The notes under the pieces are model-generated. The model ran no database searches. It was given only the letters and a program-made list of their open reading frames with translations, and was not told the DNA's origin. A DNA stretch of 20,115 nucleotides from an uncultured Acidobacteriota bacterium. GTDB taxonomy: Bacteria > Acidobacteriota > Thermoanaerobaculia > Multivoradales > JAHEKO01. A program made the position numbers and the translations under genes. The DNA lies in contig CAVQNG010000015.1 of NCBI GenBank assembly GCA_963713825.1, forward strand, positions 1 through 20,115. Direction: 5' to 3'. This document shows, piece by piece, positions 1-16,582 of the stretch (positions are counted from its first letter, which is position 1; each line of letters opens with the position of its first letter).

Positions 1-1523
1 CGGGAGCGGGCCACATGGCCACTATCACCGATTCCGTCATCGAGACCGATCCGGCGGTGGCCGACATCATGGCGGACTTCAGCTCGCAGGGGCCCAACGA
101 GTCATTCGATGTCTTGAAACCGGATGTGACCAACCCGGGAGTGAGCATCTACGCAGCCGTCAATGACCATCCCGAACTGCCTCCCGGGACCGAATTCGCC
201 GAAATCGGTGGCACCTCCATGTCGAGCCCCCACACAGCCGGTTCGGCAGCACTGATCAAGGCAGTTCGCCCGGATTGGTCGCCGGCTGAGATCAAGTCGG
301 CCCTTATGATGACCTCGAAAACAGAAGACGTCTTCAAAGTAGGTGGCACTGAGGATGCCGACCCGTTTGACAGGGGATCCGGCCGAGTGGACCTGACCAA
401 AGCCGCGGAGGCCGGTCTGATTCTCGATGAGATCTTTGCGAACTTTCAGGCGGCTGATCAAGCCCTTGGCGGCAAACCCGAGGAGCTCAATCTGGCCGGT
501 CTGCAGCAGAGTGTTTGCGTCCTGGATTGCGAGTGGACGAGAACCTTCTCCAGCACGCAGAGCTCTACCGTCAACTGGAGTATGAGCTTCACGGCCCCTC
601 TGGGTGCTTCCATGTCGGCCAACCCCAGCTCCTTCGCGGTCGCCGCGGGCGCGGACGAGACTGTAGAGTTCTCCATGGAAGCCTCGGGGATACCTTTCCA
701 CACTTGGACCTTTGCCCACGTCACCCTTACCCCAGACGACGGAAGTCCGGAGCTTCACCTTCCGGTAGCCGCCAAATTCCCGAGCACAATTTCCCGGCAA
801 GTATCGTGTTTGAAACTCACGATACGTTCGGTTCGGACAGTCTCGAGGGTTTCCAGTACCTCGAACCCATCACCGACCTCACCATCGTGAAATACGGTTT
901 AGCTCAAGGAACACAGATCGACTTCAGTCTCTTCGAGGACCCCACCTGGAACTCCCCCTACGACGATCTGTCGCAGGTCTATTTCAAAACGGTGACTGTG
1001 CCGCCGGGCGCCCAAAGCCTCGTGGCCATGACCGAGTCGGATGAGGCACCCGACGTGGATCTGTTAGTAGGCACCGGGTCGGTTCCGAGCGCGGGCACAC
1101 AGGTCTGCGTGTCCTGGACTCTTACAGCCTCTGAGATATGCGAGATTGCCAGTCCGGTGCCGGCACCTGGTGGATTCTGGTTCAGAACTGGCTCCGGCTC
1201 AATGAATCAACCCGATCTCATCAGCCTGTTCGACGCCGTCGATGTCGAGTTCGGATCCAGGCAACATGGCGATCACCGGGCCTGCCGCGGTCCCGGCCGG
1301 TGATCCCTTCGAATTGACGGTTTCCTGGAATCTGGCGAGCTTTTAGGTCGCCCGAGGCTCTGCCTCCCAACGAGCATTGGTTCGGAGCTTTCAGCGTGGC
1401 AGCAGACAGCGCCATTCAGCCGATCGAGACGATCCTCTTGCGTCTCGAGTCGTTCCGGATGTCTTCTTCGCCGACGGCTTCGAGTCTGGCGACTGCTCCG
1501 CGTGGACCAGCGAATACCCCTAG
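1..1523 (+). CDS. S8 (subtilisin-like) serine peptidase, 3' part; 5' end outside window, frameshifted; ends in DGFESGD tail
   Basis: ORF 15..890 has KPDVTNPGVSI, the catalytic-Ser motif GGTSMSSPHTAG and WSPAEIKSALM. Coding continues in the frame of ORF 515..1303 (DVDLLVG, PPC-like). Bases 1458-1523 read DVFFADGFESGDCSAWTSEYP-TAG. Confidence 0.85.
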
Positions 1524-4505
1524 GGGGCCATCTGCCGCCAGTCCCCGGTCGCCACGAAGCCGGCCCGAGTAGAAAGATGGGTGCTCAACCCCGCCTCGCG
1601 GCGGGCTTGGAGCAGGTCGAGACTTGCTTGGTGTACCGATTCGATGTGGAGAGGCCGTCGACAAATCGGTGCTCAATTCAAGAGCCTCATCCACTCTCGA
1701 GTGGGCTCGTCTTCCACCTGCCATAGGCTCATGATCAGACTCCTGGCACCCGCCAGTGCGAAGGCCCGGCGCAGACCAAAGACCCCTTCCCCGGTGCGCA
1801 CTTCGCCAAGACCTGTCTTGCAGGCCGAGAGCAAAGCCCATTCCACTCCTTGGAGATCGAGAGCGGCGATCTCCTCGGCAGTCAGGATCCCGTCATCTTC
1901 ATCGGAAGCCGCGGCCTCTCGATGGTTGGCTCCTGCCATGACGAGACCCAGAGCAAGAGAGGGTTCTCCCGCGATGACGTCTGCTCCAACAGCCTCAGTT
2001 GCCGCCGACCCCGGAGCCGATCGGCAGTTCTCGCCTAGAAAAAAGCCGTGGGTTGCCAAGGCGGAGCACACTTCACCAGGCGCCGATCGCTTGAACTCGG
2101 TCTCGCTCGCTGCCGCACGGTCAAGGCGTACAACGTCGATTAGCGGCGCTCTAGCGCCACTCAATCGTCTTGGATCAGCCGACGAACCACCGCGGGTAGC
2201 CCACACGGACAGCACCTCGTCCAACTCGCTCGCCGTCGCCGGTAGCGGCTCGAAGCTCATCGCTTGAAAGCTCTCGCAACCCGATCGGGAACCCCTGAAC
2301 ACTACTTGATCCTCGATCTCTGAGGACACGTGGCTACAACCATCTCCGACCCTGGCACCAGCGCCGCAAAGAAGGCGGGTTCGTCGAAATCCGGATCTCC
2401 CAAAGCCAGCATGCCCTCAGCCATGGGGGCTCTAACCTCCAGGAGAAGATCTCGCTCTGCAGAGAGGTAATGAATTCTCGGCCCCGATTCGATCAAGTAC
2501 CTGGATGGGGACGCGGGCAACGCCGCCAGGCTGACCAGGTTGAGCGTCCCGTCCGGCACCACGAAGATGGTCTCCAGACCCTGTGGTACGACTCCAGGTG
2601 GAGACCAGATCACCCGCCGAAGGTTGTCGCTAATCCGGCGGTAGACGTTCTCCGCCCATCTAGCCGATTGTCCCGGATCGGCGGCGATCTGCGACAGGTG
2701 CTGCTGAACTCCCAGCACCAGTTCGTCGATTTCCTGGGCCGGACCGAGCGGAACCACAACTGGCACACCACCCCCACTTCGAATCAAGAACGCCAAATAG
2801 GAGAATGTCGGAATAGACGGACCCGGCGGAGTACCTTCCCTCAGCCGTGAATGATCGTACCTCGCGAGTGAGCCCGGCCGCTACCCGGCGGGAGGGCAGC
2901 TATGACTTCTTCAAGACCTGCCTGCGTACTGGTCTGGTGCCGACGAAACGCGGCGCTTACTCGTCCCAGAGTCCTTTCTGCCGCCTCCTTGTCTGCCGCG
3001 AGCGACCGCGAGCTGTTCCCGGAAGACCTCCTGAGGATGCACAGCCGGACCACCTACCACGAGCTTGGCAAGACGCTCGCGAGATGAGACAAGATCTTGA
3101 TATGCGGCGGCGACTCGAGGATCCTGGATACCCTGAACGTCTCGATGCCGACCCGCCATCTCATCGAGGACCTGCGTCCGCGATTTGACCAGGGCATCAA
3201 AGACGGCCGTGGTCGACTCTGCATCTTCGCCTCTGGCAGCCAGCGCAAGCGCGAGATCGAGAGGGTCTCGGATATATGCGGCGTAGAGCGATCACCCCGC
3301 TCTGAGAGCGTGCGAGCAGCAATTCCATCCGCTCTCTGACATCCGCCGCACACCGGAGTAAGACCGCAGACTCCTCTACGAGATCGAGGTTCGCGAGCAC
3401 TTCACCCAGGGAAAGCAGACTGTCCGCCACATCCGGATGAGAGGGGCCGTGGGACTTGAGTCGCATCTCAAGCGCCCACTCGTGGAGAGGTCTCGCCTCG
3501 GCATAATGGCTCGTGTCGTTGAGGAACTTCGCCAAGCCGTAGTAGTCGTAGGCCAGCGATGGGTGATCAGGGCCCACTTCTTTCTCTCGGACCTCCACGG
3601 CCCGAATGAAGAGCGGCTTCGCTGCTTCATAGTTGCCCTCCATACGGTACTGGATGCCCAGATTGAGAAGACTGTTTGCCACATGGGGATGGTCGGGCCC
3701 TGGAGCCTTCTCCCGGATGGCGAGCCCACGCTCATAGAGCGGTTTTGGATCTCTGGGGCCGTGACTGTCACTCAGCGCGTTCGCCAGATTGGTCAAGCTC
3801 GATGCCACGTCTGGATGCTCGGGCCCCAACGCCTCCTCTCGAATCGCGAGTGCTCTCTCGTAGAGTCGGATCGCCTCTGGATAGTCGCCCTTCTCCAGGC
3901 GAGACCCGCTAGGGAGTTCAAGGTCTCCGCCGCCTGAGGGTCTTGGGGACCCAGTGCGCTCTCCCGGATCTCGAGAGCTCGAGAATGGGCCTCGCTCCAA
4001 CGTAGTCCGCCTGGCGGTAGAGTGCGAGTCCCAGGCACTGCAGACTCTCAGCCACCAGAGGGTGCTCTGGCCCAAGAGAGTTCTCTCGAATCTCCAGGCT
4101 CCGCCTGCAAATAGATTCGCCCTCAGCGTAGTCGCATACGCGCGCAAAGATGATCAGGGTGGTTGCCACTTCGGGATGATCTGGGCCGTAGACCGCTTCC
4201 TTGATGGCTATCGCTCGCTCGGCTAGCGGGCGCGTTTCGGGTTCCGCAGCCCTTCCGTTGCGGGTCTTCGCCTGCACCAGAAGATCGAGAGCACGAGCAA
4301 CCTCAATGGACTCTCCTCCTTCGGTCTCCTTGGTTTGGCTCAGAAGAAGCTGCGCTTCTAGCTCCGCCTCCGGGTAATGACCAGTCGCGATGAGTTGGGA
4401 AACGATCTCGAAGGAACCCTCACCGGCCGTGACAGGTCTAGCATCGAGCCCCGCTAGGCTCAAGCAGACGCCAAAACAACCGGCGACCCACAGCCGTTGT
4501 CGCAT
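1520..4505 (-). CDS. Secreted TPR-repeat + CHAT (caspase-like, clan CD) protease; multiple frameshifts
   Basis: Signal-peptide-like N-terminus MRQRLWVAGCFGVCLSLAG. Kinesin-light-chain-type TPRs (ALAIREEALGPEHPDVASSLTNLA). CHAT motifs VVPDGTLNLVSLAALP, LATHG, LSACKTGLG, EGVFGLRRAF, SLWQVED and GFVATGDW. Pieced together from ORFs 3918..4505, 3197..4147, 2302..2796 and 1673..2329; stop at 1522-1520. Confidence 0.85.
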
Positions 4506-4539: not shown

Positions 4540-5276
4540 CTAATTCGATGCCCTGCTGCCCTCCGATATCTGGTCTAACAACTCGACGGCAGTCGCCTTC
4601 AGGTCTCCATCTAGGGCGATGATCCGCTGGAGCTCCTGCTCGGCAAGGGACTTTTCGCCAAGCCTGCGAGATAGGCTTTGCCAAGATAAAACCGGGCACG
4701 CTCTTCCATCAATGGACTCTGCGTCGCCTCGAGAAGAATCTCTACCGCCGGCTCCGGCTGATCCGTCAAAAGGTAACTGACCCCCAGGTAGAAGTGGCCG
4801 ATCCATGACTCGGGATCCAATTCAACGAAGGTATCGAGTCGCCGAATTGCCTCGGGGTAGTCTCCCTCTTGATACGGCAACATGGCCTTGTGGAATTGCT
4901 CTTCCCCTTCACTCGCCGAGCTTCGGAGTGTCTTCGGTTGGTATGGTGCCGGTCCGATGGCAGAGAGTCGAACCAATTCTGCGTCATGGACTTTGACTGG
5001 ACCCTGACTCCAAAGCCACAGGCCAAGTCCGATTCCCACGAGAACCACGGCGACAGTCCACGCCCATCCCCACCGCACCCCAGCAGAAGGGGTTTCTGCC
5101 CGTACCGCCCAGCGATCGTCTGCCAGTTCGGAGCGCAACGCTGAGTACTCCTCCAAGGCCTCGAAGCACTCGTTGCAGGAAAAGTAGTGCTTCTCGAGCT
5201 GGTGAGCCTCCTCCTCGCTCAACTCTCCGAGCAGGTATTTCTCGATGTGCTCGCTCTGGATGTCGGCGCAATTCAC
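4540..5276 (-). CDS. Zinc-finger (ZAS/zf-HC2) anti-sigma factor with TM helix and extracytoplasmic TPR; one frameshift near the C-terminus
   Basis: HYFSCNEC (HxxxCxxC), a TM segment WGWAWTVAVVLVGIGLGLWLW, then TPR-like helices. The C-terminus continues in the frame of ORF 4540..4806. Directly follows an ECF sigma gene. Confidence 0.85.
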
Positions 5277-5294: not shown

Positions 5295-5321
5295 AGTGTC
5301 TCCAGCATCAGCTTCGTGACG
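5295..5321 (-). promoter_or_regulatory. Candidate ECF promoter overlapping the sigma gene's 3' end, upstream of the anti-sigma gene
   Basis: Minus strand CGTCAC(5321-5316)-N15-GACACT(5300-5295). Same spacing and similar boxes as the array promoters. Confidence 0.55.
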
Positions 5322-5904
5322 TCTTTCTCCGGATTTCCTGCCGCGCTCGTCGCACGGCCCTCGATTTGCGCTTCCGGACCAGTTCGGTTTTCAGCCCTAG
5401 TTGCGCCGCAATTTCACCCGGTTTCAGACCTTCTGTGAGCGTGAGACGAAGGATATTACGGTCGGTGGAGTTCAGCCGCTCGATCGCATACAAGGCCTGC
5501 CGTCGGCGCTCCGCTTCTCCGAAGCTCTTCTCAGGATCAATCGGTACCGGACTTGAAGGCGAACGCGACTCCGTGGAAGACCTGAGCTTGCGCTTCCGAA
5601 AGAAGTGATTGATTTGATTCCTGGCGGTGCCGCAGATGTAGCCGGCTAGACCGTCCTGATTGCGCAGCCTACCCTCGCGCAGGCCGCAAAGCACCGCCAG
5701 CATGATCTCCTGAGCTAGATCCCGAGCCGTCTCGCAGTCCTTGGTTCTGACCAGGGCCATGGCGTAGACCCTGCGATAGAAGTGGTCCACCAAGGCCGCC
5801 TCAGCTGACCGCTCCCCATTACGGATCCGCTCCGCCAGGTCCACTGTCGGGCTGACCGTTGCCATGCTGTCGCCAATCTTATTCTGACCGTTATTGTCAT
5901 GCAA
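5308..5904 (-). CDS. ECF-type RNA polymerase sigma factor (start may be ATG at 5865)
   Basis: Region 2: ARDLAQEIML...GYICGTARNQINHFFR. Region 4: LNSTDRNILRLTLTEGLKPGEIAAQLG...VRKRKSRA. Adjacent to a ZAS anti-sigma gene. Confidence 0.92.
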   Translation of the reverse strand: MHDNNGQNKIGDSMATVSPTVDLAERIRNGERSAEAALVDHFYRRVYAMALVRTKDCETARDLAQEIMLAVLCGLREGRLRNQDGLAGYICGTARNQINHFFRKRKLRSSTESRSPSSPVPIDPEKSFGEAERRRQALYAIERLNSTDRNILRLTLTEGLKPGEIAAQLGLKTELVRKRKSRAVRRARQEIRRKTSRS

Positions 5905-5956
5905 AGTGAGCGCCGACAGATCTTCATTCGGTTTCGCCCAGACGATTCAGTGTCGC

Positions 5957-5983
5957 CGTCACGTTTTCCTCTCCGAAGCAACT
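5957..5983 (+). promoter_or_regulatory. Candidate ECF promoter (array copy 1)
   Basis: CGTCAC-N15-GCAACT; the flanking sequence resembles 9797-9830. Confidence 0.55.
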
Positions 5984-6000
5984 CAATAACTAGACAGAAA

Positions 6001-6031
6001 CGCCTCGACAAAGGCACACCTGGGAAAACCT
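6001..6031 (+). ncRNA. Truncated 5' half of a c-di-GMP-I riboswitch
   Basis: CGCCTCGACAAAGGCACACCTGGGAAAACC is identical to 9851-9880, then runs directly into AGGAG and the ATG at 6046. P3 and the 3' strand are absent. Confidence 0.7.
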
Positions 6032-6045
6032 GAAAGGAGACCGCT

Positions 6046-7437
6046 ATGGGACGAACCTCGAGACGAGTCAGCCTGGTGGCAATGTTGATCGTGCTGTTCG
6101 GCACTGTGGCAAGCAGCGCCAACCTGATCAGCTATACCACGTGGTCAGCCAACCGTGATCGAGTCATGGTCATGGACGACACAGGGGCCAATCCCCTCGA
6201 AATCTTCCCAGGCTGGAAGTTCTCACCTTATGGGCTGAATCACACAATCTCTCCCCAACGGTCAGACGGAACCTGGGTCGCCTTTTGGGACAGCGAGCTC
6301 TATAAGGTCAAGGCCGACGGGTCTGGCTTCACCAAGGTGCTCTGCAGCAGCTACGACGGTGAGAGCGGAGTCCCTTACAGCTACCCTTCTGCTCCGCGGT
6401 GGTCACCCGATGGCCGGTGGATAGCTGTCGGGACGTTCGAGGGTATTGCTCTGCTTCCGTCTGATTTCGAGGTTGGCTTGGGCGCGGAGGGTGATGCCTG
6501 CGCAGCACCACTCCAATTCGTCTTTCTAGAATCTGAAGATCCGAATTGGGACCTCGACTCACGGGTGGCGTGGAATCACGACGGGACGCAGATGGCGTTC
6601 ATCGAGATCTTCTACCCAAGAGACCCCGAGAACGAGCAAATTCGGATTGTGATTCTCAAACGCCAAGAGGACGGGTGGGTACGGGTGCACGAGGTGTCGA
6701 CCGATGTCGAGCTCTTCGGCAAGTGGCCGTGGTCTCTCGATTGGCAGCGCGGCGGGAATCTCCTGGTGATCCACACCCTTGAAGGCAGCGGACCGCAAGG
6801 AGTGTTCTGGATCAACTGGATCGATATCACCAACGGACAGTGGGGATATGTCACTGAAGGCACAAGCCCGAGTTGGTCCCCGGACAACTCCCATCTACTC
6901 ATCGTTGACGAAAGGGGCACGATCATCAAGTGGCGCTACCCGGAAGGGCCAGGGGAGGTCTTGGGCTCGGGAGAGTCCCCTGAGTGGCAGAGAGACGAGC
7001 TGTCTTTCACCTGCGAGATTGATGCAGACTGCGATGATGGCAATCTGTGCACGGACGACAAGTGCGATTCTGGCGAATGCAGCAACTCTCCCAACTCCCT
7101 GGTGTGTGACGATGGCAACGAGTGCACGGGCTTCGATGGCTGTAGTGAGGGTCTCTGTGTTGGACAGCCCATCTCCGACGGTACCCCTTGCGACGCTGGG
7201 TATTGCTGCGGTGTGATGTGTGTCGAGTTGGCTTGTGACATCGACAGCGACTGCGACGATGAAGATGCCTGTACGATCGACACTTGCGTCTTCGAGACGG
7301 TCAATCCCTGCGCAACGCATTGCGAGTACGCACCCGATCCCGTTTGCCCAAGCTGCTTGCCGAAGGGTACACCGTGCGACCCGGAGATACCTTGCTGTTC
7401 GGGGATGTGTCACCCTGTCAAGGGAACGTGCAAGTAG
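6046..7437 (+). CDS. Secreted protein: TolB/PD40-like beta-propeller, Cys-rich repeats and a C-terminal knottin-like motif
   Basis: Signal peptide; PRWSPDG, AWNHDG and PSWSPD motifs; CDDGNxCT repeats; terminal CLPKGTPCDPEIPCCSGMCHPVKGTCK; RBS AGGAG upstream. Confidence 0.85.
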   Translation: MGRTSRRVSLVAMLIVLFGTVASSANLISYTTWSANRDRVMVMDDTGANPLEIFPGWKFSPYGLNHTISPQRSDGTWVAFWDSELYKVKADGSGFTKVLCSSYDGESGVPYSYPSAPRWSPDGRWIAVGTFEGIALLPSDFEVGLGAEGDACAAPLQFVFLESEDPNWDLDSRVAWNHDGTQMAFIEIFYPRDPENEQIRIVILKRQEDGWVRVHEVSTDVELFGKWPWSLDWQRGGNLLVIHTLEGSGPQGVFWINWIDITNGQWGYVTEGTSPSWSPDNSHLLIVDERGTIIKWRYPEGPGEVLGSGESPEWQRDELSFTCEIDADCDDGNLCTDDKCDSGECSNSPNSLVCDDGNECTGFDGCSEGLCVGQPISDGTPCDAGYCCGVMCVELACDIDSDCDDEDACTIDTCVFETVNPCATHCEYAPDPVCPSCLPKGTPCDPEIPCCSGMCHPVKGTCK

Positions 7438-7459
7438 TAGTTCCGAAGCGCCAGAACTC

Positions 7460-7490
7460 GGGCCGGGCCTCGCGCCCGGCCCTTCTTCTC
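7460..7490 (+). terminator. Probable intrinsic terminator
   Basis: 9-bp stem GGGCCGGGC/GCCCGGCCC with a 5-nt loop, followed by TTCTTCTC, ~20 nt after the stop codon. Confidence 0.6.
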
Positions 7491-7496
7491 TCGCAC

Positions 7497-7525
7497 TTGA
7501 AATCTCAGTTGGGCAGGAGTACCGT
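7497..7525 (+). promoter_or_regulatory. Candidate sigma70-type promoter
   Basis: TTGAAA-N17-TACCGT; the implied +1 (~7532) falls at the riboswitch 5' end. Confidence 0.5.
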
Positions 7526-7532
7526 CTGACCT

Positions 7533-7620
7533 ACCTCGACAACGGTAAACCTGGTCAAAGCCAGGGACACAAAGCCACGGGTCTTACCTCATCGAGAAGA
7601 CCGCCGGGCTGCCGAAGGGT
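7533..7620 (+). ncRNA. c-di-GMP-I (GEMM) riboswitch
   Basis: GGTAAACC-TGGTCAAAGCCA-GGGACACAAAGCCACGGGTC...GACCGCCGGGCTGCCGA matches the GEMM-I consensus; 40 nt upstream of the ATG. Confidence 0.9.
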
Positions 7621-7660
7621 GGAACGTCACGTTGACCGCAACCGCAGGAGGGAGGGTCCA

Positions 7661-8824
7661 ATGAAACATCTGCTTCCCGCAGCGCCGATCGTTCTGGCCT
7701 TGGTGATCATGGTGCCTACTCTGACCTACGCAATCGGGCCAACCCTCGACATTATCTTTGCAAATCAGGGGCAGAGGAACCGCGTCTGTCTGGGCGACGG
7801 GACCGTAGACTTTACCTGCAGTGACGTCAGTGCCAATACAGACTCGTCGTGGGGCGTGGCGCTGGGCCACGTCGATGGAGATCTCACTTTGGACTCCGTC
7901 TTTGCGAATTTCTCGTCGACGCCGAACCGCGTCTGTCTAGGTGACGGAATCGGGGGCTTCACTTGCGGTGACGTCAGTGCCGACGCGAACGATACCAGAT
8001 ACGTAGCGCTCGGCTACGTGGACGCCGATGAGTCGCTTGACGCCGTGTTTGCAAACAGTGACGGGGTAAATCGAGTGTGTCTTGGAGACGGCGTCGGGGG
8101 CTTCACCTGCAAAGATGTGAGCGCGGAGACGAACACTTCATACGCTGTGGCGTTGGGTTTCGTAGATGGCGACCAGAAGCTCGACGCCGTCTTCTCGAAT
8201 CAGGGTAGGAACCGCGTCTGCCTAGGTGACGGAACTGGGGGCTTTACTTGTAGCAACATCAACACCGACGGGTATTGGTCTCAGGGTGTGGCGCTCGGCT
8301 TCGTGGATGGCGATCAGAACCTCGACGCCGTGTTCGCAAATATGTTTGGCCCGAAGAATCGTGTCTGCCTAGGTGACGGAACTGGGGGCTTTACTTGTAG
8401 CGATGTCGGAGGTGACGTGAACGACTCGAGGTATCTGGCGCTCGGTTACGTGGACGGCAGTCAGACGCTTGATGTGGTCTTCGCGAACGGCGGTGCTCGT
8501 GACCGAGTATGCCTTGGTGACGGTGCAGGAGACTTTACCTGCAGCGACGTCAGCACCGACACATTCGCGGGTGAGACGGTGGCTCTCGGCTTCATCGACG
8601 GGGACCAAGCTCTCGACGCTGTATTCGGTAATGCTGGCCGGAACCGCGTTTGTCTCGGAGACGGGAACGGCGGCTTCACCTGCAGCGATGTCAGTGCCGA
8701 TGAAAACTACTCCTATGGCGTGGCACTCGGCTACATAGACGACGAGGTCTGGATCTTCACCGACGGCTTCGAGTCTGGTGACACCTCGGCCTGGTCGGAT
8801 TCTGTGCCAAGGAGATCACCTTAG
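7661..8824 (+). CDS. Secreted FG-GAP/VCBS-like 7-repeat beta-propeller with DGFESGD tail
   Basis: ATG 7661 after GGAGG; signal peptide MKHLLPAAPIVLALVIMVPTLTYA; seven ~49-aa repeats (VALGxVDGDxxLDAVFAN...NRVCLGDGxGGFTC); tail IFTDGFESGDTSAWSDSVP. Confidence 0.9.
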   Translation: MKHLLPAAPIVLALVIMVPTLTYAIGPTLDIIFANQGQRNRVCLGDGTVDFTCSDVSANTDSSWGVALGHVDGDLTLDSVFANFSSTPNRVCLGDGIGGFTCGDVSADANDTRYVALGYVDADESLDAVFANSDGVNRVCLGDGVGGFTCKDVSAETNTSYAVALGFVDGDQKLDAVFSNQGRNRVCLGDGTGGFTCSNINTDGYWSQGVALGFVDGDQNLDAVFANMFGPKNRVCLGDGTGGFTCSDVGGDVNDSRYLALGYVDGSQTLDVVFANGGARDRVCLGDGAGDFTCSDVSTDTFAGETVALGFIDGDQALDAVFGNAGRNRVCLGDGNGGFTCSDVSADENYSYGVALGYIDDEVWIFTDGFESGDTSAWSDSVPRRSP

Positions 8825-8834
8825 ACGGAAGGGT

Positions 8835-8861
8835 TGTCACGTTTGTGTTCGTGCAGCTACT
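8835..8861 (+). promoter_or_regulatory. Candidate ECF promoter
   Basis: TGTCAC-N15-GCTACT, ~20 nt upstream of the aptamer. Confidence 0.6.
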
Positions 8862-8879
8862 AGTAGAGGGAATCGGAAG

Positions 8880-8990
8880 CGCCACGCAAAGGCACGCCTG
8901 GGAAAACCCAGGGCCGCAAAGCCACGGGTCCTCGTCTCCTTCGCGACGGAACCCCGCCACGAAGGACCGAAGACCGCCGAGCTGCCAAGG
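8880..8990 (+). ncRNA. c-di-GMP-I riboswitch with extended P3
   Basis: AAAGGCACGCCTGGGAAAACCCAGGGCCGCAAAGCCACGGGTC...AAGACCGCCGAGCTGCC. Confidence 0.85.
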
Positions 8991-9030
8991 GAGGACAGGT
9001 CTAGTGCTTATAGGAGGGGGATCAAGAGCA

Positions 9031-9591
9031 ATGAGAATAATAACGACATTCTTTATCGGATTGACCTCTTCGCTAGTGTCATCGCTCTCAGCCCAACCAG
9101 TATTTTTCTATCAAGGAGATGGTGCCACCGGAAATGCCTACGAACACATCGAAGCGGTAGCGATCCCGTGGCAGGATGCCCTTTTGGCTGCCGCAGACTA
9201 TCGGTACTGCGGGTACAGTCACTTAGCGACGATTCACTCTTCTCAAGAGAATAGCTTCGTGCTCTCACTCCTTGCCGCAGGAACGATGGATGCTTGGCTA
9301 GGTGCCTATCAACCCGACCCGTCTGAGCCGCCCTTAGACGGCTGGGAGTGGATTACAGGGGAGCCCTGGAACTACGTCAACTGGGCACCAGGCGAGCCCA
9401 ATGATGGAGGGCCTGACGGTGAAGATAAGCTCACAATGTGGGGCGATAGCGGTTTCGGACCTCCGGGGACCTGGAACGATGGAGGCTCCGGGCCTGTTCA
9501 TGGCTATGTGGTCGAATGGGAATGTGAGATTCTGCTCTTGGACGGCTTCGAGTCCGGCGACACCACTGCCTGGTCCAGCACTGTCGAGTAG
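9031..9591 (+). CDS. Secreted C-type-lectin-like domain protein with DGFESGD tail
   Basis: Signal peptide from ATG 9031; HLATIHSSQEN, AWLG, WEWITGEPWNYVNWAPGEPND, WND and GYVVE; tail LLLDGFESGDTTAWSSTVE. Confidence 0.9.
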   Translation: MRIITTFFIGLTSSLVSSLSAQPVFFYQGDGATGNAYEHIEAVAIPWQDALLAAADYRYCGYSHLATIHSSQENSFVLSLLAAGTMDAWLGAYQPDPSEPPLDGWEWITGEPWNYVNWAPGEPNDGGPDGEDKLTMWGDSGFGPPGTWNDGGSGPVHGYVVEWECEILLLDGFESGDTTAWSSTVE

Positions 9592-9603
9592 CCCCCCCGG
9601 GGC

Positions 9604-9624
9604 GGCCCCAGCCTCGCTGGGGCC
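9604..9624. other. GC-rich hairpin just downstream of the stop codon
   Basis: GGCCCCAGC-CTC-GCTGGGGCC, with no U-tract. Confidence 0.5.
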
Positions 9625-9803
9625 CTGTGGGGCTGGAGCAAGTCCCGGGATATAAGCACCTCCCCCTCGCCCGTCAACCTCACCTGTCCCAGCGAGTACC
9701 AAGGCAACATCTCCTCTCACCAAGGGTCTATGCCTTCCAGACCGAGATCTCGCCTCAGTACAGCCTGAGACAGGCTGGGACAGGAACAAATTCCAATGTC
9801 GCC

Positions 9804-9830
9804 TGTCACGTTTGTGTCCGTGTAGCTACT
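9804..9830 (+). promoter_or_regulatory. Candidate ECF promoter
   Basis: TGTCAC-N15-GCTACT. Confidence 0.6.
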
Positions 9831-9852
9831 CATAGATATGGAAGTAGAAGCG

Positions 9853-9947
9853 CCTCGACAAAGGCACACCTGGGAAAACCCAGGGCCGCAAAGCTACGGG
9901 TCCTCATCTCCGCATTCGGACCTAAAGACCGCCGGGCTGCCGAAGGG
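9853..9947 (+). ncRNA. c-di-GMP-I riboswitch
   Basis: CCTCGACAAAGGCACACCTGGGAAAACCCAGGGCCGCAAAGCTACGGGTC...AAGACCGCCGGGCTGCCGAAGG. Confidence 0.9.
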
Positions 9948-9989
9948 TAGGAGAGATCCATCTCCGCCGATACTTAGGGGGGATTTGCG

Positions 9990-10847
9990 ATGAAGATGGT
10001 TTGTGGGGTTGCGGCAATCGCCCTACTCGCACTGGCGCTCGGGGGACCAGCGTTCTCGGGTTCGAGCAAGGTTCAGGTTTGTCATATGCCACCCGGCAAT
10101 CCGAACGCTGGTGGCAACTTGGAGATTCGACCCCTGGCGCTTGGGCCGGAGGTCACCTTTGATGACGTGACTTTGACGAGTGCCAATTGTGCGCCTGCCA
10201 ACCTAGTCGCCTTCTGGCCTTCGGACGGAACCGCGCAGGACGTGGCCGGGATCTACGACGGTACCCTCGACGGTGACGCCACTTTTTCCAGCGGCAAGGT
10301 AGGTCAGGCATTCAGCTTCGACGGGAACCAAGCACAGGTGACGCTTGCCACTTTCCCCACAGCCAGCACCTTTTCCATCGAAGGCTGGATCTACTACCTG
10401 GGAAGCAGCACGCCACCCTGGACCACCATTTACGCCGACGGCAACCACGGTTTCTTCCTCAATGACCTGCGGCTCAGTTGGTGGGATTGGGGAGAGCGTT
10501 TTGCCGGAGGCTCCCAGATCTCGGTGGCGGAGTGGCATCACGTCGCAATAACCTACGATGCTAGCCTCAGCATGTTCAGCGGCTACGTCGACGGTGTACC
10601 TGACGGCACATCCATCTTTGCCGGAGCAGCCTTGCCTCCTGGGGAGCCAGTGGTGAGCATCGGTGGCCACGATTCTGGTGTCGATGTCCTCGAGGGGATG
10701 ATCGACGAACTAGCCGTCTACGATCGCGTTCTCTCCGCAGCGGAGATCCTCGCGATCTACAGCCTCGACAGTGTTGGCAAATGCATGATGTTCAAGGGAC
10801 ACTTCGAGACTGGAGATACCTCGCGCTGGTCGGACTCTGTGCCATAG
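9990..10847 (+). CDS. Secreted LamG/concanavalin-A-like jelly-roll protein with a variant tail
   Basis: Signal peptide; LVAFWPSDG, GKVGQAFSFDG, FSIEGWI, WHHVAITYD and GMIDELAVYDRVLSAAEI; tail MFKGHFETGDTSRWSDSVP. Confidence 0.9.
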   Translation: MKMVCGVAAIALLALALGGPAFSGSSKVQVCHMPPGNPNAGGNLEIRPLALGPEVTFDDVTLTSANCAPANLVAFWPSDGTAQDVAGIYDGTLDGDATFSSGKVGQAFSFDGNQAQVTLATFPTASTFSIEGWIYYLGSSTPPWTTIYADGNHGFFLNDLRLSWWDWGERFAGGSQISVAEWHHVAITYDASLSMFSGYVDGVPDGTSIFAGAALPPGEPVVSIGGHDSGVDVLEGMIDELAVYDRVLSAAEILAIYSLDSVGKCMMFKGHFETGDTSRWSDSVP

Positions 10848-10870
10848 GAGATCACCTCAGGCGGAAGGGT

Positions 10871-10897
10871 TGTCACGTTTGTGTCCGTGTAGCTACT
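10871..10897 (+). promoter_or_regulatory. Candidate ECF promoter
   Basis: TGTCAC-N15-GCTACT. Confidence 0.6.
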
Positions 10898-10915
10898 AGG
10901 CGAGGGAATCGGAAG

Positions 10916-11029
10916 CGCCACGCAAAGGCACACCAGGGAAAACCCAGGGCCGCAAAGCCACGGTTCCTCGTCTCCTTCGCGACGGAACCCCGCCACGAAG
11001 GACCCAAGACCGCCGGGCTGCCGAAGGGT
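10916..11029 (+). ncRNA. c-di-GMP-I riboswitch with extended P3
   Basis: AAAGGCACACCAGGGAAAACCCAGGGCCGCAAAGCCACGGTTC...AAGACCGCCGGGCTGCCGAAGG. Confidence 0.85.
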
Positions 11030-11064
11030 GAATGGTGGCCCTGTCTATGGAAAAGGAGTTTGGT

Positions 11065-12414
11065 GTGAGGTTGGCAGCGATGTCCCTTGGAATGAGCGTG
11101 CTGATCGCCGGCTCGATGAGCGCCCAAGGCCCTGTTCCGGTAGGTGAAGAGTTCCAGGTCAACACCTACACAACGAGTGATCAACGTTTCCCAGCGGTTG
11201 CCGTAGAGCCCGATGGCGACTTCGTGGTGGTGTGGTGGAGCCGTGGATCTTCAGGAACGGACTCGTCTTGGACCAGCATCCAGGGGCAGCGCTACGATTC
11301 CGATGGCTTCCCTGTGGGGGGCGAGTTCCAGGTCAACACCTATACTACGAATGGGCAAACAGCGCATTGCGTAGCTGTCGACCAGCATGGTGACTTCGTC
11401 GTGGTGTGGCAAAGCAATAGCGCCAGTTCATCTGGGACGGATACAAGCTCATACAGCACCCAGGGGCAGCGTTACGATTCCGATGGGCTTCCTGTGGGGG
11501 GTGAGTTCCAGATCAACACATATACAACGAATTTTCAGGGTCAACCATCTGTTTCCGTCGACCAGGATGGTCGCTTTGTCGTGGTATGGCTGAGCGAAGG
11601 ATCGTCTGGCACAGACACCGACGTGATGAGCATCCAGGGTCAGCGTTACGACTCCAATGGCCTTCCACTGGGCGGCGAGTTCCAGGTCAATACCTATACG
11701 ACAGCAGACCAGAAATGGCCAGCGGTTGCCGTAGAGCCTGATGGAGACTTCGTGGTTGTGTGGACCAGCGAAGGCTCGTTCGAAACGGACACCGATAGCT
11801 ACAGCATCCAGGGACAGCGCTACGATTCCGATGGCTCCCCTCTGGGGGGTGAGTTCCAGGTCAACACTTACACAACGTCGGATCAACATGACACATCTGT
11901 TGCCGTCGACCAGGATGGTGACTTCGTGGTTGTGTGGAGGAGCCGTGGTTCGTTGGGAACGGATACAGACGGTAGCAGTATCCAGGGGCAGCGCTACGAT
12001 TCCGATGGCTTCCCTGTGGGGGGCGAGTTCCAGGTCAATACCTATACGACCAGTTTCCAGAGTCAACCATCCGTTTCAATCGATCAGGATGGTGGCTTCG
12101 TTGTGGTGTGGAGGAACTTGGGAAGATCAGGAACGGATACAGACGGCGTCAGCATCCAGGGGCAGCGCTACGATTCTGATGGTCTCCCAGTGGGAGGCGA
12201 GTTCCAGGTCAACACCTACACTACGAGCTATCAATATGAACCAGAGGTTGCCGCAGGCCCCAATGGAGGCTTTGTGGTGGTGTGGGCCAGCGACGGCTCA
12301 TACGGCACGGATACCGATTACTTCAGCGTCCAGGGGCAGCGTTACACGCTACCGGTCTTCCAAGACGGCTTCGAGTCCGGCGACACCTCAGCATGGTCGG
12401 ATTCTGTGCCATAG
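11065..12414 (+). CDS. Secreted 7-repeat (probable beta-propeller) protein with DGFESGD tail
   Basis: Likely GTG start at 11065 after AGGAG (ORF is open from 11032). Seven ~59-aa repeats GEFQVNTYTTxxQxxPxVAVDxDGxFVVVW...SIQGQRYDSDG; tail VFQDGFESGDTSAWSDSVP. Confidence 0.88.
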   Translation: MRLAAMSLGMSVLIAGSMSAQGPVPVGEEFQVNTYTTSDQRFPAVAVEPDGDFVVVWWSRGSSGTDSSWTSIQGQRYDSDGFPVGGEFQVNTYTTNGQTAHCVAVDQHGDFVVVWQSNSASSSGTDTSSYSTQGQRYDSDGLPVGGEFQINTYTTNFQGQPSVSVDQDGRFVVVWLSEGSSGTDTDVMSIQGQRYDSNGLPLGGEFQVNTYTTADQKWPAVAVEPDGDFVVVWTSEGSFETDTDSYSIQGQRYDSDGSPLGGEFQVNTYTTSDQHDTSVAVDQDGDFVVVWRSRGSLGTDTDGSSIQGQRYDSDGFPVGGEFQVNTYTTSFQSQPSVSIDQDGGFVVVWRNLGRSGTDTDGVSIQGQRYDSDGLPVGGEFQVNTYTTSYQYEPEVAAGPNGGFVVVWASDGSYGTDTDYFSVQGQRYTLPVFQDGFESGDTSAWSDSVP

Positions 12415-12437
12415 GAGATCACCTCAGACGGAAGGGT

Positions 12438-12464
12438 TGTCACGTTTGTGTCCGTGGAGCTACG
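12438..12464 (+). promoter_or_regulatory. Candidate ECF promoter
   Basis: TGTCAC-N15-GCTACG. Confidence 0.55.
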
Positions 12465-12483
12465 ATAGAAGGAAGAAGACGCG

Positions 12484-12597
12484 CCTCGACAAAGGCACAC
12501 CTGGGAAAACCCAGGGCCGCAAAGCCACGGGTCCTCGTCTCCTACGTGACGGACGCCCGCCACGAAGGACCCCAAGACCGCCGGGCCGCCGAAGGGT
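12484..12597 (+). ncRNA. c-di-GMP-I riboswitch with extended P3
   Basis: CCTCGACAAAGGCACACCTGGGAAAACCCAGGGCCGCAAAGCCACGGGTC...AAGACCGCCGGGCCGCCGAAGG. Confidence 0.88.
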
Positions 12598-12642
12598 GAA
12601 AGGGAAACTCTGTTTCTGAAAAGGCATGAGGAGAACGGTGCG

Positions 12643-14555
12643 ATGAAGAAGCTGAAGAACGAGCTCGCGGTTATGACGGCGATGATCCTGTTGAGTGGCT
12701 CGACCCTTCTGGGCGCCGAGGGTCCCTGGGAGCCGACTGGCCTCCAGGGCAACCACATTTGGGCACTCGAGACCAGCTCCACCGGGGTGATGTTGGCGGG
12801 TTCTGCCCTTGCGCCCAGCAACAAGATCTTTCGCAGTCCCGATTACGGCCTCACTTGGACCGAAGCCACTGGACTGCCCGGGCTAGATCTGGGGTATCGG
12901 GTTTGATCTGTCGACGAATCGATCGCCGATTCCCCGCTGAACGGCGCCGGCGTGAACAGGAGCCTGGACGGCGGCGCGAAGCCGGTCCTGGTCGACCCCC
13001 AACGGGAGAACTGCAGATCGCCGTCTCGCCAACTCATTCCAACGTCCTGTACGTCGCGAGCCAGACGGGAGGCGTGTACAAGAGTGAAGATGCCGGCGAT
13101 ACTTGGCTCCTTCAGGATCTTGGTACGGCCGACAACGCCACTGCGATTGCCGTGCACCCGACAAATCCCGATACAGCCTTGGCCGGCACGCCGTTTGAGG
13201 GAGTCTTCAAAACGACCAATGGCGGGTTGACCTGGTTCGAGGTCAACTCCGGGCTCGAGCTCAACTCCCTCCAGATTGCGGACATCAGGAGTCTTCTCAT
13301 TGATCCGTTGAATCCGATGACAGTTTACGCCGGGGAATTCTGGAACGGCGTCTTCAAAAGTCTGGATGGCGGCATTACCTGGTTCAAGCCTGACCCGAGC
13401 CTCTTTGCGACGGTCCTTTCGATCGAGTTGTCAGGCTTCGATCTTTACATCATCAATACCTTTGACGATGACGGCAATCCCGCCTATCGCAGTAGCGATG
13501 CCGGAGTCACCTGGGAACCGCTACCCAGACAGCCAGAGCTCCCGGGGAAGAATCTGGCCCCGATCTCTGTCGGTGATTCCGGGTGCAGTGCTCATCGGCA
13601 CCGATCCTTCTCCGAATGAAGGCGGCATCTACAGTTGGCAGCTGGGTGACTCCGATGTCGACGGTGTACTGGACGATATCGACAACTGCCCGGACACACC
13701 CAATCCGGCCCAAATCGACTCAGACGGTGACCGCAAGGCGATCTCTGCGATGCCTGTCCAGGGGATCCCGCACAGCTGTGTAATCCAGGGGGATCCACGG
13801 CCGCCGAGATTCCAGCGGATGAAGGGGGTTCGCTCCAGACGCCGGATGGCGCCGTGACGCTCGACATCGACCCCGGCGATCTCACCGAGGACAGCACCTT
13901 ATCGATCACGGAGGTGACCCCGACCGATCCGACAGCGGATCTGGTCCTGGATGACGGCAACGCCAGCGGCCAGCCACTGGCCACCTATGTTTTTGAACCG
14001 GATGGTCTCGAATTCAGCGGCCCGGTCACTCTCGAAGTCATAGCCGACGTCTCGAATCTGAACCGTGGTCAGAGAGCGCGAATCGATCTCTATCTGTACT
14101 CGGATACCGAAGGGGACGGAGTCGAGGACAGCTACGTCAGCCTGGGCGCAACCTGTACGGTGGTCGAGGCCCCGTCCGAAACCTTCACAGCCACGTGCAC
14201 CGCCGAACTCGTCCACCTGTCGGTCTATTCGCTGATCGCCCCACTCGATAGCGACGGTGACGAGGTACCAGATCAGTTCGGTTCCGTGACGGACTTCTGT
14301 CCAGGAACCGCAATTCCAGAAGGGGTACCGCTGGTCTATTTGGGTGTCAATCGATTTGCACTGGTCGATGCAGACGCGGTGTTTGACACGACAGCCCCCC
14401 CCGGGGCTAGACAGTCCTTTACCTATTCGACTGATGACACTGCCGGTTGCTCGTGCGAGCAGATCATCGATGTTCTCGAGTTAGGCATCGGGCAGTGGCG
14501 ATTCGGATGTAGCAACGGCGTCATGAAGGAATGGCTGACCGAGTTGAGCGAGTAG
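12643..14555 (+). CDS. Secreted BNR/Asp-box (VPS10/YCF48-like) propeller, thrombospondin type-3 repeat, ZU5-like and Cys-containing C-terminal domain; frameshifted
   Basis: Signal peptide (12643..); Asp-boxes SEDAGDTW, TTNGGLTW, SLDGGITW and SSDAGVTW; DSDVDGVLDDIDNCPDTPNPAQIDSDGD; FEPDGLEFSGPVTL. Joined from ORFs 12643..12906, 12759..13619, 13366..13857 and 13854..14555. Confidence 0.75.
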
Positions 14556-14774: not shown

Positions 14775-14860
14775 AGGAGAAGGGGCAAACCTGCCGAAAG
14801 GCAGGGGCGCAAAGCCACGGGTCCTCGGCCGAGCATCCCAGGATCGCCGGGCTGCCGCGA
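14775..14860 (+). ncRNA. c-di-GMP-I riboswitch upstream of an ECF sigma operon
   Basis: GGGCAAACC-TGCCGAAAGGCA-GGGGCGCAAAGCCACGGGTCC...GGATCGCCGGGCTGCCG, canonical with a GAAA tetraloop. Confidence 0.92.
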
Positions 14861-14913
14861 GCGTCGCAGACTGCTGGAGCCGAGTGGCTCCACAGAGGCA
14901 GGGGAGCGTCCCG

Positions 14914-15747
14914 ATGGGTGTGACCTCGAGGCTCATCGAGTGGGTTCCGGGCCTTCCGGCGAAGGAGGTAGAGGAGGCCTGGGATCAATTCCTCAGCGAG
15001 TATGCCGCGGTCATCCTCCAGGTCGTTCACCTGTTCGAGCGAGATCAGGACCGGGTCGACGATTGCTTCCTCTTCGTCTGCGAGCAGCTGAAGAGAGATC
15101 GCCTCAGGAGACTCCGTCGATTCAGGGGACGGGGCGGCGTCGTTTCCCACCTGGTCGCGCAGTTGCCGCAACCTCTGCCTCGATTGGCGCCGTAAGCGAT
15201 TCGGTCGCCCCCGGATCTTTCGCTCCATCGCTCGCCTCCCGGAAGTGGATCAGGAGGTCTTCCGCTGCATCTACTTTCGGAAGCTGAGTGAGAACGAGAC
15301 GCTCCACACGGTCAGGGCGCTCTACCCGACCCTGGACCGAGAAGGGCTCGCCGCGAGCCTGGTGCGCATTCGCAGCTAGTCTCAGCCCCCCCACCAGTCG
15401 TGGCTTCTGGTCTCGCGCAATCCTTACGTGGAATCGCTTTCAGTGGAACGCGCGCTCCAGCAACCGACGATCGGGAAAGGGAGCTGCCTGATCCCGATCC
15501 GGATCCCGAGAGCGAGGCGGCCAGGCGCGAGTTCCTCGGCGCCCTCCGTCGAGGCCATCGCAAAGCCTTCCCGCAGGGGGATCGGCTGCTCCTGCGGCTT
15601 CGCTTCGAGCAGGGGTTGTCCCTGGAGGAGATCGCGGAGCTGATGCAGCTCGGCAGTCCAAGCAAGGCCCAGCGAACCTTGCAGCAGGCACTTTCCAGGA
15701 CGCGAGAGACGAGCTCCAGATGCAGGGAATCGCGTCCTTGTCCGTGA
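14914..15747 (+). CDS. ECF-type sigma factor; frameshifted
   Basis: EEAWDQFLSEYAAVILQVV...DDCFLFVCEQL (region 2) and DRLLLRLRFEQGLSLEEIAELMQL (region 4); followed by a ZAS anti-sigma gene. Confidence 0.8.
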
Positions 15748-15794
15748 AAGAACCATAGCCGGTTGGGAATTCACCTGGGCCGGGTACTGACGAA

Positions 15795-16554
15795 ATGATC
15801 GAAGAATCGGACATCGCCCAGCAGATTCCGCTGGTGGCTGAGGCGGCTACCCCGCGACAGAGGGTTCGCTGTCCGCTTCCAGCGCAGCTCGCGGCCTATG
15901 TCGACAGCAGCCTGGATCCGAGCGCCAGATCTCAGGTGGAGGAGCACCTGGCCGACTGCACCCACTGCCTCGGGCAGGTCGGGTTCCTGGTTCGCGAGTC
16001 GCGAGAAACGGAGGCAACACCGCTACCTTTTTCGCGCCTGGTCGAAGGGTGCTGCTCGCGACAGACTCACCCTTCGGTTCACTCTCGTGCCAGTGCCGGC
16101 CGTGGCGGCCATGGCGGCGACGGCCCTTCTGTTGGCTGTCGGGGTCGCCCTGGCAGCCGGACCGTGGCCTGACACCCTTCAGCCCGGCCCATCCGGGTTC
16201 CGGCAGCACAGGCCAGACCTCCTCGGGAGCACCGATGGATCGGACGCTCCGCAATGGTGCCGTAACAGTGGCCCCGCCTCGGATTTTGCAGCCAGGCGAC
16301 GAAGAGATCGTTGGCCGGCTGCCTTTGGAGATCCGCTGGTCGACCTCCCCCGGGCTCTGCAGTACTCGGTCCAGGTGCTGAGCCTAGCGGGTGATCTGGT
16401 ATGGCAGGGCCGGAGCGCTGGGGAAGAGACCATAGTTCCTCCGCAAGTGGCGCTCGAGCCTGGACAGAGGTACTACGTGTGGGTGGAAGCGCGGCTTCCA
16501 TCCGGCGCTGTCTCGAGGTCCGATGCCGTGGCCTTTCGCGTCGCTCCCGATTGA
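15795..16554 (+). CDS. Zinc-finger (zf-HC2) anti-sigma factor with TM helix and Ig-like extracytoplasmic domain; frameshifted
   Basis: CPLPAQLAAYVD...VEEHLADCTHC; TM segment VPAVAAMAATALLLAVGVAL; C-terminal YSVQVLSLAGDLVWQ...LEPGQRYYVWVEA. Confidence 0.8.
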
Positions 16555-16582
16555 CGGGGGCAGCGTTCAAACGGGGAAGATA

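Follow-up and report, generated by a model that had tools for sequence, protein, structure and literature searches.

How does a bacterium come to set a row of mutually unrelated secreted proteins each behind its own copy of one riboswitch, and what part is played by a repeat that separates the genes and begins inside the coding sequence of the gene before it? The locus that raises this question lies in 20,115 nucleotides (nt) of DNA from an uncultured bacterium of the Thermoanaerobaculia (Acidobacteriota), a stretch referred to below as the window. It is the entire contig CAVQNG010000015.1 (C15) of assembly GCA_963713825.1 (G000; 5.42 Mb in 38 contigs, 96% complete, estimated contamination 0.27%); C13, C14, C16 and similar labels denote other contigs of the same assembly. 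The window is probably one version of a variable genomic island. We favour, with reasonable but far from complete confidence, the reading that the island encodes surface proteins controlled individually by cyclic diguanosine monophosphate (c-di-GMP), that it differs between strains, and that it has been shuffled by homologous recombination at conserved junctions.

Secreted-protein genes and their c-di-GMP-I aptamers

The island is laid out as a row of co-oriented single genes, flanked on both sides by divergent modules for an extracytoplasmic function (ECF) sigma factor, an anti-sigma factor and TPR-CHAT proteins. The six genes of the row, all on the forward strand, encode a PD40/TolB-like beta-propeller with a Cys-rich C-terminal region (6046–7437; Pfam PD40), an FG-GAP repeat protein (7658–8824; FG-GAP_3), a C-type lectin-domain protein (9031–9591; Lectin_C), a LamG/concanavalin-like protein (9990–10847; Laminin_G_3), a protein of seven 58-residue repeats (11032–12414; period 174 nt) and a BNR/Asp-box (sortilin-like) protein with TSP3 (12643–14555; BNR/Sortilin, TSP3). 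They had been described from the sequence as six unrelated secreted proteins, and Pfam bears this out: the domains are of extracellular type and differ from gene to gene, and all six N-termini resemble signal peptides as judged by eye. The repeat is of 58 residues (174 nt), not of 59 as first read. The FG-GAP, lectin, LamG and repeat proteins end in a common tail of 22 residues, in the LamG protein in the variant form HFETGDTSRWSDSVP; the TolB-like and Asp-box proteins have no tail. The term cassette is used here for an expression platform followed by signal peptide, domain and tail.

Six complete aptamers of the c-di-GMP-I clan were found with Rfam at the gathering threshold (CL00126, models RF01051 and RF03167, cut-offs 35 or 59 bits), all on the forward strand and each 5' of a gene: 7535–7617, 8881–8989, 9854–9945, 10917–11025, 12485–12594 and 14775–14860. 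They score 44.0–69.9 bits and span model positions 1–80 or 1–87. About 1–53 nt lie between the aptamer end and the start codon, and a purine-rich ribosome-binding site is present. The last aptamer precedes an ECF sigma gene and lies beyond the span covered by the sequence-only reading. That reading had given every cassette its own riboswitch leader, which is so for five of the six genes. The TolB-like gene has a remnant only, an aptamer cut after the P2 loop at about 6003–6031, directly 5' of the start; the same remnant stands on C13. What is kept on both contigs (C15 5997–6031; C13, locus L009, 5574–5607) is the 5' strand of P1, G20 and the 5' half of P2. By these features the remnant is a decayed switch, and the gene would be left without c-di-GMP control.

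At the model positions that we take to be G20, A47 and C92 in Vc2 numbering, each of the six window aptamers reads G, A and C, respectively. Four of them score best on the GGC-variant model, yet they have the canonical A at position 47, where that variant would presumably have G. These residues predict c-di-GMP as the ligand. The assembly holds 32 aptamer matches, 17 of them on C13–C16, and 13 GGDEF matches, two of them on redundant contigs, so that c-di-GMP synthesis is encoded; these per-genome counts, like that of the tail below, are somewhat inflated, because the bin contains more than one co-assembled strain. The latter follows from eight small contigs (C7, C21, C22, C24, C26, C27, C32 and C38) each of which repeats, along its whole length, part of a large contig at 92.7–100% identity.

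No terminator-like site was found 3' of any window aptamer. The one convincing terminator, a GC hairpin with a T-rich tail at 7460–7482 on the forward strand, lies 3' of the TolB-like gene. Because no intrinsic terminators follow the aptamers, the cassettes would most likely be controlled at the level of translation. When the lectin and sigma leaders were folded without enforcing the aptamer, their ribosome-binding sites paired with the 5' strand of P3, a hint of an ON switch. The leader of the repeat protein gives a hint of an OFF switch instead: its start codon stands 6 nt past the aptamer, and its ribosome-binding site, GAAGGG, lies inside the 3' strand of P1. In the models of the remaining three leaders no coupling was seen.

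A junction unit that begins in the tail codons of the upstream gene

A unit of about 240 bp is present in three full copies on the forward strand (8754–8991, 10802–11035 and 12356–12603), which are pairwise 87–92% identical. It runs first through the tail codons of the upstream gene, then through the stop, a spacer of 25 nt and a promoter-like motif, TTGTCACGTTTGTGTCCGTG-N-AGCTAC, into the aptamer. The first copy has TTGTCA-18-TACTAG (8834–8863) before the aptamer at 8881–8989, and the third has TTGTCA-18-TACGAT (12437–12466) before that at 12485–12594; the aptamer of the second is at 10917–11025. Leaders of this kind (type A) follow the pattern TTGTCA-18-TAC(T/G)A(G/T), ending 18–20 nt 5' of the aptamer. 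The first copy is 94% identical to C13 8562–8802, where it stands behind a different gene. The extent of the unit, from the tail codons across the stop to the aptamer, agrees to within about 10 nt with what had been read from the sequence, and the partial copies reported there were recovered at 9804–9945 and 5997–6030.

The partial unit at 9804–9945 (forward strand) consists of the promoter-like motif and the aptamer 9854–9945; some 210 nt of other sequence lie between it and the lectin tail. Spacer and aptamer together (C15 9589–9950) are 86% identical to C13 11661–12028, and the spacer that stands behind the lectin gene on C15 stands there behind the repeat gene. The TolB-like leader (5951–6045, forward) has a degenerate form of the motif, CGTCACGTTT, and the aptamer remnant joined to a ribosome-binding site. 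A second type of leader, type B (7497–7617, forward), has a TTGAAA-17-TACCGT pair that ends 9 nt 5' of the aptamer 7535–7617, and a near-identical leader is found on C13 (7084–7221).

In 5.4 Mb the 14-nt core TGTCACGTTTGTGT is found at exactly 10 sites, each 46–49 nt upstream of an aptamer and all on C13, C14, C15 or C16. It is invariant in all 10 copies, and its conservation exceeds that of some parts of the aptamer. When eight junctions were aligned, five showed a near-identical spacer past the stop (three on C15, one at C13 8562–8802 and one at the start of C16). Their upstream genes encode the FG-GAP, LamG and repeat proteins, a PD40 protein of C13 and, at the start of C16, an unknown product; left of the common spacer the tail is the sole sequence that the five share. 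The motif and the aptamer with its long P3 insertion have been copied behind any gene, with a tail or without one. An FAD-oxidase-like gene (C14) and the gene of a 581-aa protein (C13) precede them without a tail, and on this point the layout first proposed is not supported.

Two further features of the junctions were seen. At the end of the FG-GAP gene (8806–8824) the usual TAG stop has been lost through a deletion of 1 nt, so that four spacer codons (RRSP) are read, and the replacement TAG stop arises by a C-to-T change. A recurrent element, CCyACCC-N4-GGGTGTTG(T/C)C, lies about 40–55 nt 5' of many aptamers; it forms a small hairpin overlapping a -35-like TTGTC, and a TA(A/G)CCT-like -10 ends 7–12 nt 5' of the aptamer. 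Examples are found in this assembly at C12:600–672, on C30 and in the sigma leaders, and at the metagenome loci L029, L032, L035, L039, L041 and L043. No terminal inverted repeats were detected in 8740–9040 or 12340–12650, where only the aptamer's own stems were seen, and a mobile promoter element resembling a miniature inverted-repeat transposable element was rejected on this ground.

Versions of the island within the assembly

Three or four versions of the locus, with differing cassettes, can be counted in the assembly. C13 follows the general plan of C15 and has seven aptamers; leftward CHAT-TPR, anti-sigma and sigma genes are succeeded by the TolB-like gene, cassettes and a riboswitch-led sigma module. 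C14 begins 1.5 kb 5' of an aptamer with an FAD-oxidase-like gene, followed by an aptamer with an intact Asp-box gene (638 aa) and an aptamer with the sigma gene. The start of C16 lies inside a unit and is followed by the Asp-box gene and by an aptamer with the sigma gene. C13 and C16 both break off exactly at the counterpart of C14:15612, C16 7267–7666 matches the final 400 nt of C15 at 99.75% identity, and the sequence past C14:15612 is single-copy in the assembly. Hence three paths, the C14 start, C13, and C15 continued by C16, converge on one chromosome, which is most simply explained if a single locus was co-assembled from several strains.

How closely C15 matches C13 changes from gene to gene. 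Identity amounts to 90% for the TolB-like gene (region matching C13 5564–7227), 74% for the FG-GAP gene, 97.5% for the repeat gene with its leader (C13 10056–11583) and 80% for the right-hand module, while the left-hand module is barely alignable. A PD40 cassette between leader B and the FG-GAP gene is found on C13 only, the lectin and LamG cassettes are missing from C13, and past the repeat gene C13 continues with a PKD/FIMAH protein, a 162-aa protein and an FG-GAP_2/TSP3 protein that replaces the Asp-box gene. Be the versions alleles or paralogs, cassette content and order are not identical throughout, and the breakpoints lie at junction elements. Leader B of C15 equals that of C13 up to GCCGAAGGGTG, the 3' end of the aptamer; beyond it C15 matches the expression platform of the FG-GAP gene, whose place on C13 is behind a type-A aptamer. 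The 97.5% tract extends from the promoter-like motif (10867) to a point inside the tail (12398).

The five cassette genes at 6046–12414 are intact. Outside them C15 contains many frame breaks, which are also numerous in C13 and which may be consensus errors or real decay. The Asp-box gene of C15 is broken into four pieces of open reading frame (ORF) and shows eight one- or two-base indels relative to the intact C14 copy; the C16 copy, 98.9% identical to C15 there, shows two, one of them common to C15.

Related genomes and metagenomes

Two genomes of the same genus, G003 and G004, have syntenic arrays with a kinase, three or four aptamers and a shared tail protein of 510/515 aa, and the remaining cassettes differ between them. 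The variation among relatives that the sequence-only reading had led one to expect is therefore present, though the full unit was found in none of the 30 relatives searched. At the DNA level, matches of the window in relatives are confined to the repeat-gene family, tails and aptamers. Aptamers number 4–13 per genome in the same genus, 0–8 in other genera of the family and 0–1 in other families of the order; among the genomes counted is G006, which is flagged as unpublished and supports no claim made here.

A 41-nt core of the aptamer was found at 18 metagenome loci, before diverse small secreted proteins, and the promoter-like motif gave no match in the same collection. The tail is rare beside the aptamer core at these loci and the contiguous unit is missing from the relatives searched, and the linkage of tail and aptamer is therefore a local feature and no general design. 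At L033 (about 5880–6100) and L034 (about 1220–1471) two aptamers lie about 75–120 nt apart with no ORF between them; each pair may be a genuine tandem riboswitch, or a cassette that has lost its gene.

A C-terminal tail distributed across the order

The tail reads hF-x-DGFESGDTSAW-S-x-x-V/T-P/Q/E and is followed by the stop, the conserved stretch being 22 aa long. A loose regular expression matched the six-frame translation of the assembly 93 times; 59 of these matches end ORFs of at least 60 aa (within 15 residues of the stop; a few are duplicates on redundant contigs), and in 52 of the 59 exactly five residues follow the W. A profile of 22 columns, built on 12 tails, gave 70 matches in this assembly and 63 in G004; among 60 other genomes sampled from the order, 41 had matches, up to 134 in a single genome. 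Within the order it matched none of six genomes of family f8 and one of six of family f7; it matched none of seven genomes from other orders of the class, and in the rest of the phylum sample there were 1–2 matches in five genomes. The tail, once taken to be the constant part of the array, is therefore an order-level C-terminal tag and no property of the array, in which the TolB-like and Asp-box genes go without it.

Across the order the tail is independent of the riboswitch: G015 has 25 matches to unit DNA (those listed cover tail codons) and no aptamer, and G027 has 84 tail matches and one aptamer. Within the assembly there is an association: of the 32 ORFs led by an aptamer, 9 carry the tail. 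That the tail stands at a fixed distance from the C-terminus of unrelated secreted proteins points to a signal for sorting, retention or processing. Two ORFs have the tail near the N-terminus and one has it internally (C25:332973, C3:1182696 and C35:18128), and it may be a small module rather than a purely terminal signal.

No match to the tail was found in Pfam or NCBIfam, a literature search for the motif returned unrelated papers only, and the C-terminal 30 residues of the LamG protein gave no usable match in the ESM Atlas. A database search with the C-terminal 40 residues of the repeat protein gave 35 matches, mostly of 273–682 aa, every one a 'hypothetical protein' or without a usable name, and the tail therefore stays nameless. 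It is acidic with a polar end (S-x-x-V/T-P/Q/E). A sortase-type signal (PEP-CTERM/LPXTG) was rejected as the tail has no hydrophobic stretch or transmembrane helix and no basic end, and a C-terminal domain of the type IX secretion system (T9SS) was rejected because 22 aa are too short for such a folded domain of about 70–100 aa and the C-termini gave no Pfam or NCBIfam match, Por_Secre_tail models included. Nothing obvious that might process the tail was seen near a cluster of tail genes (C3, 1826–1866 kb).

Proposed explanation and its alternatives

In the reading that we favour, each cassette would have its own leader, made up of a promoter-like element and a canonical (G20/A47/C92-type) c-di-GMP-I aptamer. 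c-di-GMP would set the expression of each surface protein separately, and that of the right-hand sigma module likewise. The 22-aa tail on most of the cargo is the general C-terminal tag of the order and would probably act as a sorting or retention signal. Being near-identical between cassettes, the tail codons, the promoter-like motif and the aptamer would act as homology arms, and through ordinary homologous recombination or gene conversion at these arms the versions of the island would have gained, lost and swapped cassettes. A bolder form of this reading is possible but doubtful; it would make aptamer and tail codons portable recombination arms, that is, a cassette system without a recombinase, the tail an undescribed sorting signal of the whole order, and the riboswitch a device that feeds c-di-GMP into ECF sigma signalling. 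Any expression platform with its secreted domain could then be set behind any near-identical aptamer and retain both regulation and tag, by which the c-di-GMP-controlled surface proteome would be diversified among co-existing strains.

Several observations weigh against the favoured reading. The tail DNA is 88–94% identical between unit copies, as compared with 81–92% between unrelated genes elsewhere in the genome, and the tail portion of the repeat could come from protein-level constraint alone. The tail-to-aptamer unit is contiguous in this assembly only, and at the 18 metagenome loci none of 11 complete downstream ORFs has the tail, which is found upstream at two of the 18. C13, C15/C16 and the C14 start may be paralogs rather than strain alleles; their shared flanks are 77–92% identical, below most of the other redundant contigs (92.7–100%), and the estimated contamination of the assembly is 0.27%. 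The frame breaks of C15 and C13 raise concern over the consensus quality or chimerism of small contigs. Rearrangement is without read-level evidence, as the four public runs consulted (Logan contigs of sediment metagenomes) yield short contigs with shares of at most 0.16. Finally, the fold models agree on no consistent direction of switching.

The promoters call for the same caution. A promoter of its own had been ascribed to each cassette, for which the conserved motif and its distance to the aptamer can be adduced; the leaders score no better against the sigma-70 consensus than shuffled sequence (mean 6.9 vs 6.5) and hold 2 sigma-70 sites where 2.6 are expected. The best hexamer pair ends 7–12 nt 5' of the aptamer in 27 of 48 leaders (32 of the assembly and those 16 from metagenome loci that had 80 nt of upstream sequence), as compared with a mean of 4.0 and a maximum of 10 in 200 shuffles, a count that overstates the support as related leaders are not independent. 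From motif and position we infer promoter activity of the leaders.

The alternative that survives best is an ordinary regulon with local duplication of leaders, in which leader and tail would each be conserved by their own function, the leader having been copied in a few recent duplications, the junction repeat would play no part in moving cassettes, and the versions would differ through unrelated indels and horizontal transfer. It would accommodate the independent occurrence of tail and aptamer across the order, the presence of motif and aptamer behind tail-less genes, the nearly equal likeness of tail DNA in unrelated genes and in unit copies, and the rarity of the tail beside the aptamer core in metagenomes. 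We nevertheless consider it unlikely, since the same 25-nt spacer is joined to five different genes, the breakpoints fall exactly at the 3' end of the aptamer, the promoter-like motif and the tail, and identity within one pair of versions is a mosaic of 74–98%. Shared spacer, breakpoint positions and mosaic identity are hard to obtain without recombination inside shared elements.

A less probable alternative, to which we give little weight, is an artefact of assembly or binning: C13, C15 and C16 would be chimeric or would derive from related organisms, and neither the apparent shuffling nor part of the repeat structure would belong to one genome. The many redundant small contigs of the bin speak for it, as do the frame breaks of C15 and C13, the unequal indels of the Asp-box gene in C15 and C16 despite their identity of 98.9%, and contigs that end in or near repeats (C16 starts in a unit, C14 near an aptamer). 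It is contradicted by the three units of C15, which differ by 8–13% and hence are no collapsed copies, by the integrity of five cassette genes and by the comparable arrays of G003 and G004. Independent public contigs moreover bridge the window from aptamer to tail (9925–10853), from the FG-GAP tail to the spacer (8717–8862) and from the terminator to the aptamer (7459–7623) with few differences, some pieces showing none. Depth peaks at tail and aptamer in the public contigs come from many organisms, and the joints listed there have short sides and are not assignable to this organism.

As the sequence-only reading had stated, there is no recombinase in the window: none of its 97 ORFs of at least 80 aa has a recombinase or transposase domain in Pfam. 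The five tyrosine-recombinase matches (PF00589) of the assembly are all on C3, C25 and C35. A site-specific, integron-like system, with the recombinase encoded elsewhere and its site inside the junction unit, would suit co-oriented single-gene cassettes parted by a conserved element and the invariant core, but it is very improbable given that C13–C16 likewise encode no recombinase, that the unit has no inverted repeats or attC-like palindrome (no dedicated attC model was run), that breakpoints fall at several places (tail, motif, aptamer end) and not at one site, and that the motif occupies the expected -35 position.

Flanking modules and further observations

The left-hand module, on the reverse strand, comprises an ECF-type sigma gene divergent from the array (5308–5904; Pfam Sigma70_r2/r4), an anti-sigma gene (4611–5276; zf-HC2) and frame-broken genes with TPR (3197–4505) and CHAT (1535–2796) domains, all identified by Pfam; the frame changes were seen by tblastn. 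The right-hand module, on the forward strand and identified by Pfam, comprises the riboswitch-led ECF sigma gene (14914–15750), which has three frame changes in C15, a zf-HC2 anti-sigma gene (15795–16554) and a TPR-CHAT gene (16715–19558). The nearest named relative of the riboswitch-led sigma factor (81% at the amino acid level) is encoded on L018, a contig of a metagenome-assembled genome (MAG) named 'Thermoanaerobaculia bacterium'. The aptamer stands before the sigma gene on C13, C14 and C16 and on this MAG contig as well. Loci with aptamer and sigma module are the window (14775–19558), L009 (17732–23000), L011 (3913–9200), L012 (2398–7600) and L018 (3731–8330). By this arrangement ECF sigma signalling is predicted to be linked to c-di-GMP through an RNA switch.

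The 58-residue repeat has the motif GGEFQVNTYTT...DGDFVVVW...GTD...SIQGQRYDS. The family counts at least 35 database relatives of similar length (P0001–P0035) and gives weak Pfam matches to PF06788 and PF23157; a relative in G009 is also aptamer-led (L008). At the left end of the window (3–1535, forward strand) a frame-broken gene for an S8 subtilase with fn3-like domains appears to run through two frame changes into a copy of the tail, FADGFESGDCSAWTSEYP, with its stop at about 1535.

Comparison with known systems

A literature search found nothing on c-di-GMP in Thermoanaerobaculia and next to nothing on c-di-GMP riboswitches in Acidobacteria; one that combined c-di-GMP riboswitches with gene cassettes and homologous recombination found nothing on riboswitches. 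In the literature searched, nothing comparable to this layout was described, in line with the sequence-only reading. If the favoured reading is true, the island is a natural case of an aptamer used as a modular part, with one sensor on many expression platforms, and of a regulatory RNA serving as a substrate of gene shuffling. Dense regulation by c-di-GMP riboswitches would extend to sediment Acidobacteriota. The putative link from c-di-GMP to an ECF sigma factor through an RNA switch is shared by four locus versions and an independent MAG. The tail is an abundant C-terminal tag without a match in Pfam or NCBIfam, and its patchy spread among families makes a search for partner machinery feasible.

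The component parts are of known kinds, namely GEMM-I regulons, hypervariable surface islands and C-terminal tags. c-di-GMP-I (GEMM-I) riboswitches control surface and secreted proteins in Vibrio cholerae (Vc1/gbpA) and adhesin and pilin genes in Clostridioides difficile, and occur in many copies in Geobacter. The present case resembles these in having the same aptamer family 5' of extracellular or adhesion-type genes and in the number of copies (32). It differs in the phylum and in that up to 6–7 single-gene cassettes follow one another, each with its own aptamer, that near-identical aptamers are coupled to different expression platforms, and that one switch heads a module of ECF sigma, anti-sigma and CHAT genes. 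Several c-di-GMP-I aptamers close together on one strand are also found in tandem riboswitches, such as the triple tandem switch of Bacillus thuringiensis cited in PMC12452182. In the tandem case several aptamers act jointly before one gene, whereas here a complete ORF lies between successive aptamers, one per gene. Pairs of the tandem kind were seen at two metagenome loci only, L033 and L034.

With integron arrays the island shares co-oriented, unrelated single-gene cassettes, a conserved separator and a content that varies between versions. Here, however, there is no integrase and no attC-like palindrome, every cassette comes with a regulator and a promoter-like element of its own, the shared element reaches into coding sequence, and the exchange looks homology-based, with several breakpoints. 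The tail is comparable to the tags of the PEP-CTERM/exosortase, LPXTG/sortase and T9SS systems, as it is strictly C-terminal, is found on dozens of unrelated secreted proteins and is confined to a clade, whole families of the order being without it as with lineage-specific tags. In contrast to those tags it is only about 22 residues long, is acidic and has neither a hydrophobic helix with a basic end nor a folded domain of about 80 aa.

A further parallel is found in flexible genomic islands and in the arrays of orphan cassettes of polymorphic toxins (contact-dependent inhibition, CDI, and Rhs), in which a conserved coding motif serves as the point of recombination. There, too, the locus is strain-variable and surface-related, and homology that reaches into coding sequence allows modules to be swapped. 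In the island described here the exchanged parts would be whole genes with their own regulation and without toxin tips, and the arms would be a regulatory RNA and a C-terminal tag.

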